Shown here piece after piece: positions 20,368-24,109 of a stretch of DNA of 26,341 bases. Both the position numbers and the translations under genes were made by a program. How positions within the stretch are numbered: position 1 is the first letter of the stretch; the number at the start of each line of letters is the position of its first letter. A model generated the notes under the pieces. The model was given only the letters and a program-made list of their open reading frames with translations. It was not told the origin of the DNA and searched no databases. This DNA comes from Promethearchaeota archaeon (GTDB taxonomy: Archaea > Asgardarchaeota > Lokiarchaeia > Sigyniarchaeales > SOKP01): positions 1-26,341 of the forward strand of contig JAEOTA010000024.1 in the NCBI GenBank assembly GCA_016840085.1, given 5' to 3'.

Positions 20368-21522
20368 TTAATCAGTACCTTGTTCATTTTGCTCAATCAA
20401 TTTATCAATTAAAGCTATTCTTAATTCTGAGAAACCTTTTATAAATTGTTCTGTCAATTGATATGCTTCATCGTCGGTATATTGTATTGGTGGATGTTTC
20501 ATAAAGTATGAAGAGGGCTCATATAAAACACCACCTTGGTTTCTCTCTATAGCTAGCTTTAAACATCTTATAGCATCAATAACGACTCCCGCAGAATTAG
20601 GAGAATCTTCTACTGAAAGGCGTAATTCGAGATTTACAGGAATGTCGCCAAATATTTTTCCCTCCATTCTAATAAAACATACCTTATTATCTTTCTGCCA
20701 AGGAACCCAATCACTTGGACCAATATGTATATTTTCATTTTTCAATCTAATTGCTGTTTGCGATTGAACAGCTTCCGTTTTTGATTGTTTTTTCGAAATG
20801 AGTCTACGCCTATCAAGCATATTCAAGAAATCTGTATTACCCCCTGTATTAAGTTGATATGTACGCATAAGTTTTACACCTCTATTTTTGAAAAGATTTG
20901 TTAAGACTCTGTGTACTATTGTCGCCCCTATTTGAGACTTAATATCATCACCTATTATTGCTATGTTATCCCTTTTAAATTTCTGAGCCCATATTGGATT
21001 ACTTGCAATAAAAACAGGCATACAATTTAGGAAACCTACTTTTGCTTTTAACGCACATTCAGCATAAAATTTTACCGCTTTTTCAGAACCTACTGGAAGA
21101 AAATTTATAAGCATATCTGCTTTTGAAGATTTGAGTTCTTGTATAATTTCTTCTTGTGTTGACTCTTTTTGATAAGATAAAATAAATGTATGATCTTCAT
21201 CATAGTAGTTCATATGATCTGCGAAACTATCTAAAATTTTTCCCATTTTAACAATAACTCCAGTTTTAGGAATTTGCTTACAAAATATTTTTGTGCAATT
21301 AGGTGGTTGAAAAATAGCCTTTGATACATCTTTTCCAACTTTCCTTCGGTCAATATCAAAGGCTGCTACAACTTTAATATCTCCTGGTTTTTTTCCACCA
21401 ATATCCCAATGCATTAAGCCAATAGCATCCTTTTTTGCTTTTTTTTTATAATAGTGGATTCCTTGAATTAAAGAACAAGCACAATTACCAACTCCAGCAA
21501 TTGCAATTTTTATTTTACTAAT
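20368..21522 (-). CDS. ino1: myo-inositol-1-phosphate synthase (start extended to a non-canonical ATT)
   Basis: FLPVGS, GDDIKSQIGAT, QLNTGGNTDFLNM, SKKQSKT, DSPNSAG. The NAD-binding N-terminus SKIKIAIAGVGNCACSLIQG is in frame upstream of the track's start (21414), up to a TGA at 21531-21529. Confidence 0.93.
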   Translation of the reverse strand: MSKIKIAIAGVGNCACSLIQGIHYYKKKAKKDAIGLMHWDIGGKKPGDIKVVAAFDIDRRKVGKDVSKAIFQPPNCTKIFCKQIPKTGVIVKMGKILDSFADHMNYYDEDHTFILSYQKESTQEEIIQELKSSKADMLINFLPVGSEKAVKFYAECALKAKVGFLNCMPVFIASNPIWAQKFKRDNIAIIGDDIKSQIGATIVHRVLTNLFKNRGVKLMRTYQLNTGGNTDFLNMLDRRRLISKKQSKTEAVQSQTAIRLKNENIHIGPSDWVPWQKDNKVCFIRMEGKIFGDIPVNLELRLSVEDSPNSAGVVIDAIRCLKLAIERNQGGVLYEPSSYFMKHPPIQYTDDEAYQLTEQFIKGFSELRIALIDKLIEQNEQGTD

Positions 21523-22882
21523 AATTATTCACCTCTGTAGTTTTTGAACTAAAATATTTTAATTTTATATCATCTACCTTTTTCATATGTCTAATTGCTT
21601 GAATAGAATAAATTATACTCGTGATAATAGCATGAACACAAATTGAAAAAATAGCATATTCAAAATGACCTAAAATACCAAAAATTAAGATATGCAAAGT
21701 ATAGATATTTCTTCTTCCATCAAATTTTCGAAAGATTTGATCAAATCGACTACTATCAGCTAAAGTAATCCCCATTACTTCTTTATATTGCATGGAACAA
21801 TGTCGATTAAAAGAATCCATTAAAATCATTATAATTAAAATAAAAATAACATATACAGAATCAATTATAAAATACGCTCCAAGCCCTATTCCCACATAAA
21901 TCGCTTGCTCATATAACTGATCAAATGAGTGTTCCATGTGTCCTGCTTTGCTCTCTTTCATTCTTAAACGAGCAAGTTTACCATCTACACCATCTAAAAT
22001 ATTAATGAGGATTAATAAAATAAGACCGATCCACCAATAATGTACTAAAAATAAGAATAATACAAAGAATCCGAAGATATTTACCACAAAAGTAACGTGA
22101 TTAGCAGTAATTTTAGAATCAGCTAATACATACACAAAAAAATTTTCAAAATATCTATTAAAGTACCAAGCAATAAAATCCAGAGTTCCTTTTTGGGTAT
22201 CTTTTACAAGCAATTTTTTTACTGATTTAAAATCGTTGAAATGTTGAAATACATAAGCAGATATCGGTACATTTCTTCTCATATCTGATTTATAGGTCGT
22301 GATTTCATCTGTAGAATGATAAGAGCTTTTATTAAAGGAAGAGGAATTTATGAAATCTTTAAAAGAAGATGATGAATTTGGTTGAGGAAATACATTCTTA
22401 CCATTAAATTTTATCTTACCAGCTAAATATTTCAATTGGTTATTATTTCTGTTTATCTTAATGTTTTTTCCTGGTATAAAAATTATATCTTCCTCTGAAT
22501 TTAATAAAGATGAGATTATTCTCTCGTCAATTAGAATTCCCCCGTTTAAAAAAATCCCATAATCAATTTCTTTATTTGATCTTTTTTCTTGATTCAAATA
22601 ATCCTTAATCATATCTAGCGATCTGATTTTTTGTATCCGATTATTTTTTTCCACTTCGCTAACATTTAAATCTTCTGTACTATTAGTTAAAATAAAAATA
22701 TTTCTAATCCCATTTTTAATAAAAATACGGATATTTCTTTCTATAATAGATAATCCACATAATTTTTTTAAATAGAAAGGTTGTTTTTTAATAAGAAATG
22801 GATCATCAGGGAGAAATATTATTCCTATAGAATTAATTGAACTTTGGTTAACTGATTTAAGTTGATTAATCTTATGTAACAT
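21518..22882 (-). CDS. CDP-alcohol phosphotransferase (DIPPS-like) with a degenerate N-terminal nucleotidyltransferase-like domain
   Basis: ITANHVT, LDGVDGKLAR...GHMEHSFD, multiple TM segments. N-terminal KKLCGLSIIERNI..F.KNGI lacks the LAAG.G.R loop. ATG at 22882 lies just after the upstream gene's stop (the track starts it at TTG 22924). Confidence 0.85.
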   Translation of the reverse strand: MLHKINQLKSVNQSSINSIGIIFLPDDPFLIKKQPFYLKKLCGLSIIERNIRIFIKNGIRNIFILTNSTEDLNVSEVEKNNRIQKIRSLDMIKDYLNQEKRSNKEIDYGIFLNGGILIDERIISSLLNSEEDIIFIPGKNIKINRNNNQLKYLAGKIKFNGKNVFPQPNSSSSFKDFINSSSFNKSSYHSTDEITTYKSDMRRNVPISAYVFQHFNDFKSVKKLLVKDTQKGTLDFIAWYFNRYFENFFVYVLADSKITANHVTFVVNIFGFFVLFLFLVHYWWIGLILLILINILDGVDGKLARLRMKESKAGHMEHSFDQLYEQAIYVGIGLGAYFIIDSVYVIFILIIMILMDSFNRHCSMQYKEVMGITLADSSRFDQIFRKFDGRRNIYTLHILIFGILGHFEYAIFSICVHAIITSIIYSIQAIRHMKKVDDIKLKYFSSKTTEVNNY

Positions 22883-22892
22883 TATCTTAATC

Positions 22893-23723
22893 CTAGGTTT
22901 TTTTTTCTTTATTTGAATAAGCAATGTACTTAGGGGGGATTAAACCAAAAGGATAAAAGTTAGATTTATTATTAAAAAGTCTTGTTAATTGATGGTATAT
23001 TTTATAATCATCAATGTCTAACCATATGGTATTTGGAAAATCATAATATCCAACGTTTAAATCTGAATTAAGAATTGATAGAACAATGTTTGTAACACCA
23101 AATTTATATAAATTTGACTTGACTCTCTGGCAGATTTTTTTAATATTTTTCGATTTTAATATGAATACACCCATATCTAAACGATTATAATAAGATAAAT
23201 CCTTTCCTATATCGATGATAAAAGAATTTTTTCCATATACTTTAGTTGCATCCTCTATGTCGTAATACCCATTGCTGTGCATTGGATCCGTAGCTAAAAG
23301 AATATCATTTCCTTTATAGTTCTTTACCAATTGAGAAAATACATTTTTTGAAAAAATATGATCTGCCATCGATAATAAAACATATTTAGAAAAAATTGTA
23401 TTAAGACCTAAAAAAAGGCTATAACCATTTTCTCTATCTGGAATTTTATTTTCAATAATATCTAATTCAATATTATGTATATTTATCAATGATGGAACTA
23501 CAGATTTTAAAATCCTTTTTTTGTATTTTACTTTATTAAAAATTTCACTAGCAACAATCTTTATTTTTCTGATTCCTGCTTTAATCATTCCAGCAATAAT
23601 ATACCCTAAAATATTAGAACTATTTAACTTTAAAAAGTACTTTTTAAATTGATCATCTTCAAAATTAAACCTACTAGAATAACCTGCTGCTAAAATTAAA
23701 CCTTCTATTTTATTCCTATCTAT
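22893..23723 (-). CDS. CTP:inositol-1-phosphate cytidylyltransferase-like nucleotidyltransferase (start extended; ATA start or frameshift)
   Basis: GLILAAGYSSRF lies in frame upstream of the track's start. ENGYSL, MADH, EDATKV, DMGVF and WLDID resemble IPCT domains. Located in an operon with ino1. Confidence 0.82.
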   Translation of the reverse strand: MDRNKIEGLILAAGYSSRFNFEDDQFKKYFLKLNSSNILGYIIAGMIKAGIRKIKIVASEIFNKVKYKKRILKSVVPSLINIHNIELDIIENKIPDRENGYSLFLGLNTIFSKYVLLSMADHIFSKNVFSQLVKNYKGNDILLATDPMHSNGYYDIEDATKVYGKNSFIIDIGKDLSYYNRLDMGVFILKSKNIKKICQRVKSNLYKFGVTNIVLSILNSDLNVGYYDFPNTIWLDIDDYKIYHQLTRLFNNKSNFYPFGLIPPKYIAYSNKEKKT

Positions 23724-24109
23724 TATTATAATCCACTTTTTTCATTCGTATATTTAAATATCTTTTAGGGGAAATGATTTAGATAACTAAGATATCAGAA
23801 ATTTATTCGTTAAGCAATATTTTTTTTGTCATAATTAGTCGGATATATCCGAAAAAATTCAATTTTTTCATTTCTAAATATCTCGAGAAATATTTTTTGA
23901 ATTTCTTTCAGTTCTAAATCTTTTTTATATCGAAATATAAAATTATTGACCTTTATAAAAGGTTTAGCTTTTTATTAAAAAGATAAATAACTTATTAATT
24001 AAATAAAAAGTTATTTTAATAATTTTTTTTGTAAATACTTTTTTTTTTGAAGAAAGGAGCTGTAACTTTAAAAAATCCAACTAAAATCATTGAAATTTAG
24101 AATGAAATA

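Follow-up and report, generated by a model that had tools for sequence, protein, structure and literature searches.

How a gene is translated when no ATG, GTG or TTG precedes a conserved part of its product is the question raised by ino1, a predicted myo-inositol-1-phosphate synthase (MIPS) gene on the minus strand of a 26,341-nt contig from Promethearchaeota archaeon, a Loki-type Asgard archaeon (NCBI GenBank assembly GCA_016840085.1, contig JAEOTA010000024.1, positions 1 to 26,341), referred to here as the window. From the comparisons described below, we consider it likely that ino1 is an intact gene under selection which starts at a near-cognate AUU codon led by a Shine-Dalgarno (SD) sequence. 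The direct observations are the sequence of the locus and its reproducibility across assemblies, the conservation of the encoded N terminus, purifying selection on the gene, the geometry of the SD sequence, and a genome-wide enrichment of near-cognate codons at SD spacing. From these we infer initiation at this site, its use of methionine, and the choice between two neighboring ATT codons. In the mechanism that we propose, GAGGTGA would position the small ribosomal subunit at the AUU, and the initiator Met-tRNA would pair with this codon despite the mismatch at the third base. The start would most likely be 21522-21520, giving a product that begins MSKIKIAIAGVGNCA, and less likely the AUU at 21525-21523.

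The ino1 start region and its product

Read on the minus strand, the sequence from 21535 to 21478 is GAGGTGA ATA ATT ATT AGT AAA ATA AAA ATT GCA ATT GCT GGA GTT GGT AAT TGT GCT. After the TGA, the ino1 frame continues with ATA (21528), ATT (21525, here called codon A) and ATT (21522, codon B), which are followed by SKIKIAIAGVGNCA. The earliest in-frame ATG, GTG or TTG is the ATG at 21414-21412, located 108 nt, or 36 codons, downstream of codon B. If initiated at 21525, the product would have 385 aa. Read-through or recoding of the TGA ahead of ino1 was ruled out, since the nine codons 5' of it, back to the TAA at 21561-21559, hold no ATG, GTG or TTG in the ino1 frame. A stretch of 37 AT-rich codons without any of these three is not rare by chance. 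What goes beyond chance is that the start is missing exactly where all 78 evaluable outside homologs have one.

Matches of at least 7 nt to the complement of the anti-SD sequence, such as the one found here, occur at about 2% of the genes in the window's genome, and across all close orthologs the element is kept as GAGGTGA, GAGGTG or GGAGGTG. The overlap between ino1 and the gene upstream is likewise retained at all 20 orthologous loci. An earlier note on this DNA, made from the letters alone, had read the strand in the same way, with the TGA as an in-frame stop, no ATG, GTG or TTG before the Rossmann motif, and the ATT at 21522 standing 6 nt past GAGGTGA and overlapping the upstream TAG (ATTAG). 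These readings were confirmed on the sequence, the first canonical start being the ATG at 21414. The spacing also proved to be like that of other genes in the window, as the note had held, the 82-aa and 75-aa genes having their ATG 7-8 nt past GGTGA. The features of the locus are collected in Table 1.

Table 1. Coordinates in the window of ino1, its start region and the gene upstream
Feature	Coordinates	Strand	Details
Coding sequence of ino1 (myo-inositol-1-phosphate synthase)	20368..21522	-	ATT 21522 to stop 20370-20368; 384 aa
SD sequence GAGGTGA	21529..21535	-	7-nt match to anti-SD complement; within the 3' end of the upstream gene
In-frame TGA, 5' boundary of the ino1 frame	21529..21531	-	From the sequence and orthologs
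Codon A, ATT, alternative start	21523..21525	-	GGTGA-N3-ATT, aligned spacing 6; ATG in six sister species, ATA in three
Codon B, ATT, favored start	21520..21522	-	GGTGA-N6-ATT, aligned spacing 9
TAG stop of the upstream CDP-alcohol phosphatidyltransferase-family gene	21518..21520	-	One base in common with ATT 21522 (ATTAG)
GVGNCA, Gly-rich NAD-binding motif, residues 10-15	21478..21495	-	Aligned to VGVGNCA of 1gr0; conserved in all orthologs
First canonical start ATG, residue 37	21412..21414	-	Gene callers' choice
Upstream operon gene, 468 aa as called from TTG	21518..22924	-	PF01066; last codons hold the SD sequence and start of ino1

The ino1 product matched PF01658 (Inos-1-P_synth) with 120.3 bits (cut-off 27) and an E value of 5e-35 over profile positions 1-107 of 107. 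Its residues 4-365 aligned to chain residues 14-367 of the solved Mycobacterium tuberculosis Ino1 structure 1gr0 (E value of 4e-111), and in this alignment IAIAGVGNCA pairs with VAIVGVGNCA, the glycine-rich segment with which the NAD-binding (Rossmann) domain opens. Since GVGNCA sits before residue 37, a product made from the ATG at 21414 would be without the NAD-binding motif. By family, the protein is a predicted inositol-phosphate synthase, and the place of its gene in an operon beside a CDP-alcohol transferase gene is suggestive of MIPS activity. No second MIPS gene was found in the genome of the window, whose completeness is 98.8%.

The NCBI, JGI and ENA collections contained the 348-aa form alone, in a cluster of five near-identical members, and no entry among them had the extended form with the full N terminus. 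Gene callers thus shorten the protein by 36 aa, as had been predicted. Every public copy of the enzyme from this species group is therefore stored without its NAD-binding N terminus, and because that part is missing, whatever has been built on these records, be it a predicted structure, a family alignment or a pathway call, is wrong. The truncation will recur across Lokiarchaeia genomes wherever standard gene finders are used.

Start codons and selection among orthologs

All 19 letters of the window's GAGGTGAATAATTATTAGT recur unchanged in a sister species (L002) and in four metagenome assemblies of different samples, two from JGI and two from ENA. The four independent metagenome contigs were 96.6-97.7% identical to the window, with 28-41 differences over 1193 bases. 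Since independent assemblies and a sister species give the same letters, the start region is not an assembly error.

A search of 54 genomes of the genus produced 20 ino1 orthologs with 75-100% identity. Codons A and B read ATT and ATT in the window (L001) and L002; ATA and ATT in L004, L032 and L006; ATG and ATT in L003, L005, L031 and L033; and ATG and ATA in L034 and L035. The remaining nine orthologs had ATG or TTG at codon B and a non-start codon at A. A canonical start was thus absent in 5 of the 20 congeneric orthologs, with ATT or ATA in its place. In the gene tree, L001 and L002 clustered with L003, L031 and L005 with weak support (69/55), and L006, L004 and L032 were placed elsewhere. 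The approximately unbiased (AU) test rejected a single clade of the five start-less orthologs (P = 0.005, for a group that was defined by the trait itself). These congeners lost the ino1 ATG on at least two occasions and retained the gene. Rooting the tree with L009 gave a long-branch, poorly supported root and was dropped; the tree was used solely for an unrooted count of changes and for the AU test.

The ratio of nonsynonymous to synonymous substitution rates (dN/dS) was 0.27 between L001 and L002 and 0.17 between L004 and L006, compared with 0.17 in the ATG-bearing pair L003 and L005, and the first 35 codons of ino1 were conserved in all orthologs compared. As these values are like those of the ATG-bearing pair, the start-less gene is kept by selection and is not decaying.

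As an outside control, we took the 80 best homologs from the genomes of other species, mostly bacteria and methanogens, with 62-82% identity; 78 of these were evaluable. A canonical start stood ahead of the motif in all 78, and at the equivalent of codon B in 66, in agreement with the homolog-like N terminus that the earlier note had assigned to a start at 21522. One outside homolog, from a Promethearchaeota metagenome-assembled genome (L097), reads GGAGGTG AGA ACC ATT TCG AAA, with ATT at codon B and ACC at codon A, and its sole "canonical" codon is the GTG within the SD sequence.

With regard to the wider distribution of the gene, window-type ino1 was present in 18 of the 54 genomes of the genus and was 62-71% identical to the MIPS of Deltaproteobacteria and Methanosarcinales. 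Its patchy distribution suggests lateral transfer. A second paralog, 40-43% identical, was present in most congeners and was not found in the window's genome.

Probable near-cognate starts elsewhere in the genome

The window's genome (29.5% GC) was scanned for long frames in which 12 codons or more separate the upstream stop from the first canonical start, with an SD match of at least 6 nt in between. The scan yielded 40 frames with an in-frame ATT, ATA, ATC or CTG at a spacing of 5-12. The in-frame codon at spacing 7-9 was near-cognate at 31 of 67 sites (46%), against a background of 14% in the same stretches (binomial P = 4e-10), and five codons further on the near-cognate share was 13%. The density of SD-like hexamers, at 0.78 per kb in the start-less extensions versus 0.99 inside genes, showed no enrichment. 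Raw hexamer density alone is therefore no evidence, and both the codon-at-spacing test and the Pfam boundaries were needed. Pfam scans of 20 candidates found 8 with a complete N-terminal domain that starts well upstream of the first canonical start (Table 2). Among those not counted, nine had no Pfam match and one had coiled-coil-type matches only, which are irrelevant to the start; for the NeuB and CoA-binding candidates, the domain boundaries force no upstream start.

Table 2. Genes of the window's genome with a complete N-terminal domain upstream of the first canonical start (positions in residues)
Gene product	Domain	First canonical start	Putative start codon
CopA-like ATPase	HMA 11-71	16	ATA
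Short-chain dehydrogenase (SDR)	13-206	80	ATA
PIG-L deacetylase	4-140	22	CTG
Ras-like GTPase	8-172	39	ATT
ThiF/E1-like enzyme	10-242	69	ATC
SMC-like ATPase	From residue 5	59	ATC
Metallo-beta-lactamase	33-226	47	ATA
Alpha/beta hydrolase	22-127	122	ATT

Given the genome-wide enrichment and these domain-supported cases, the start of ino1 is not peculiar to ino1. In the genus, AUU, AUA, AUC and occasionally CUG would serve as SD-led starts for a noticeable share of genes. The ThiF/E1-like gene (C25:15528-16268, L049) has its ATC behind GAGGTGA, and the corresponding codon in 14 congeneric orthologs (L067-L080) was ATT in 10, ATC in 3, ATA in 1 and never ATG. This pattern looks like selection for a non-AUG start, beyond mere tolerance of one.

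The sole aIF1/SUI1 gene of the genome (C81:64276-64491, L095) encodes the start-codon checker itself. The 60 codons that follow its upstream stop include no canonical start, its third codon is ATT, and the match to the SUI1 domain starts about 27 codons in, ahead of any canonical start. It is possible, though we put this forward tentatively, that the genus polices the third base of the start codon weakly, so that AUU, AUA and AUC, and rarely CUG, are regular starts for perhaps a few percent of genes, aIF1 included. If this were true, ino1 would be caught in the midst of such turnover, its start changing between ATG, ATT and ATA from one congener to another while purifying selection acts on the gene.

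Two side observations concern this part of the work. In the PIG-L gene (C76:30513-31187, L045), the GGTGA-N6 codon is CTG. Among its congeners (L081-L094), some have TTG or ATG there, and seven without a canonical start nearby have TTT or TTC. Puzzlingly, TTT is two positions off ATG; a start two codons downstream, at ATA or ATT, is possible. In the search for tRNA genes, ARAGORN found just 7-13 in the 4.7-Mb genome, several of which have introns in unusual positions, and the tRNA genes are probably too intron-rich for standard detection.

Choice of start codon, alternatives and known systems

To compare codons A and B, spacing was measured from the last G of GGAGG to the start (the aligned spacing) in genes with a match of at least 5 nt to the anti-SD complement. 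In the window's genome this spacing peaks at 9-10 and ranges over 7-12; codon B lies at 9 and codon A at 6. The arrangement GGTGA-N6-start, with a spacing of 9, was found in five of the eight domain-supported near-cognate genes and in all 14 ThiF orthologs, and the remaining three of the eight have aligned spacings of 7, 8 and 10. Codon B (21522) is favored because of this geometry and because of the family-wide position of the N terminus. We judge it somewhat better than an even chance that translation would start at codon B and regard codon A (21525) as the distinctly less probable candidate, with what remains falling to the ATA at 21528 or to mixed use.

Several points weigh against initiation at AUU, or at this particular AUU. 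Reviews on initiation in archaea name AUG, GUG and UUG alone as start codons (PMC7531240), and for aIF1, discrimination against non-canonical codons has been reported (PMC6237735). Six sister species have their ATG at the equivalent of codon A (21525), which speaks for that codon. Because the end of the upstream gene overlaps the ATT at 21522 and constrains it as well, the conservation of this codon is not independent evidence.

Some alternatives would do away with the near-cognate start altogether. That an error of assembly or sequencing conceals a real ATG could be imagined in an AT-rich region with homopolymer runs close by. The earlier note had named such an error as an outcome that would overturn its reading. 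We found no sign of one, the start region being the same in five independent assemblies and in L002, and ATA standing at codon A in three further species, so that next to no weight can be given to this explanation. It is also very unlikely, in our estimate, that the start has simply been lost and that the gene is decaying or yields only the truncated product annotated from the ATG at 21414. This would fit the exclusive presence of the 348-aa form in public collections and the ATG in sister species, which implies that a canonical start was present recently. The product from Met37, however, would lack the GVGNCA motif in what is the only MIPS found in a nearly complete genome. The frame is unbroken in five species and four further strains, the dN/dS values of 0.17-0.27 in start-less lineages include the first 35 codons, and the start-less state has outlasted speciation in two separate lineages. 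The earlier note had allowed that all close relatives might have ATG while this copy is unexpressed, and had proposed looking for ATT or ATA at the 5' ends of related ino1 genes; the five congeners without a canonical start answer the question of the start codons in relatives. Its proposal of AUU initiation alone fits the observations and is supported by the conserved N terminus, purifying selection, the five assemblies and the spacing mode of the genome.

Other alternatives involve the gene upstream. A programmed +1 frameshift at its last codons (UAU UAG U) would fuse the membrane transferase to Ino1, which would then need no start of its own. The ino1 frame is indeed +1 relative to the upstream frame, and the SD-like element before the stop bears a superficial likeness to bacterial prfB, where such an element lies about 3 nt before the stop at the +1 shift site. 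In ino1, however, the SD sequence ends 8 nt before the stop, and tRNA-Tyr on UAU is unable to re-pair on AUU. The last sense codon is variable (TAT, GAT or AAT), leaving no conserved shift site, and the stop itself varies among orthologs, being TAG in some and TAA 3 nt further on in others. Sister species and outgroups have an ino1 ATG of their own at the same place. We find a frameshift scarcely credible. Less improbable, but still unlikely, is that the AUU is used solely through translational coupling, with ribosomes that end at the TAG (21520-21518) re-initiating on the overlapping AUU and ino1 output tied to translation of the upstream gene. The overlap of stop and start (ATTAG), the position of the SD sequence within the last codons of the upstream gene, and the retention of the overlap in 20 of 20 orthologs would all suit such an arrangement. 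An upstream same-strand open reading frame, however, ended within -40 to +12 nt in only 13 of the 40 near-cognate candidates, compared with 84 of 147 canonical SD-led genes, and the CopA-like, SDR, Ras-like, PIG-L, metallo-beta-lactamase and hydrolase genes with near-cognate starts have no such upstream gene. Since most candidates lack a nearby upstream gene end, coupling is not required for near-cognate starts. The earlier note had likened the overlap to coupled gene pairs; the overlap stands, in all 20 orthologs, and the necessity of coupling does not. Coupling may add to the expression of ino1 from an SD-led AUU. Termination-reinitiation at overlapping gene pairs was studied by Huber et al. 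2019, as described in PMC7531240. The pairs studied resemble ino1 in their same-strand overlap and in having the SD sequence of the distal gene inside the proximal gene. Their overlaps involve ATG or GTG (ATGA, TAATG), whereas the distal start of ino1 would be AUU, and near-cognate starts in the window's genome are not enriched in coupled positions.

SD-led AUU and AUA starts are known in bacteria from infC and pcnB of Escherichia coli, and translation table 11 counts ATT, ATC and ATA as possible starts. As in those genes, ino1 has a near-cognate AUH codon at normal SD spacing as the only possible start for a conserved N terminus, and gene callers take a downstream ATG that shortens the protein. 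It differs from them in its archaeal host, which has the eukaryote-type factors aIF1, aIF1A and aIF2 and not IF3, in that many genes, rather than two or three, appear to be affected, and in the way the codon changes between ATG, ATT and ATA within a single genus. Unlike for infC, no autoregulatory logic was evident for ino1. Animal mitochondria also initiate at AUA, AUU and AUC, without SD guidance and with a modified tRNA-Met anticodon. The window's genome is similarly AT-rich, with probable AUH starts beside AUG, whereas these starts are SD-led and nothing points to a changed tRNA, tRNA detection being incomplete. To the bacterial cases also belong ebpA of Enterococcus faecalis, with an ATT start (PMC4447247), and the non-canonical starts of Deinococcus deserti (PMC2830850).

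In the same group of organisms as the window, a paper on Asgard tubulins (Sci Adv 2026, PMC13394414) independently assigned a "likely rare ATT start codon" to the gene atubA, with a ribosome-binding site ahead of it at a plausible distance. As with ino1, the deposited protein is incomplete; the first beta strand is missing, and a start at the ATT further upstream restores a homolog-like N terminus. The atubA case is that of a single gene treated in a methods-section remark, whereas ino1 is backed by 20 orthologs, a tree, dN/dS values, independent assemblies and a genome-wide control. In the literature searched on AUU or AUA initiation in Asgard and other archaea, we found this single remark and no systematic study. 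On the comparative evidence, ino1 looks like a new and unusually well-controlled example of SD-led AUU initiation, in a lineage where such starts look common. It would mean that AUU and AUA are tolerated as working start codons in an archaeon whose initiation factors are of the eukaryote type. The genome-wide enrichment, together with the missing canonical start of aIF1, makes the stringency of start-codon selection in Asgard archaea directly testable.

The other genes of the ino1 operon also have uncertain or missing starts. The middle gene (21518-22924) was called from a TTG that has no SD sequence upstream (ccccctaagtaca TTG); as called, it shares 32 nt with the end of the gene before it, and the TTG is a doubtful start. 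The first gene (23588-23744 on the minus strand, start region) encodes a nucleotidyltransferase with a GLILAAGYSSRF motif. From its in-frame TGA at 23744 to this motif there is no ATG, GTG or TTG. The ATA at 23708, behind a weak AGGA, would yield MEGLILAAG, and the ATG called at 23588 removes the motif.

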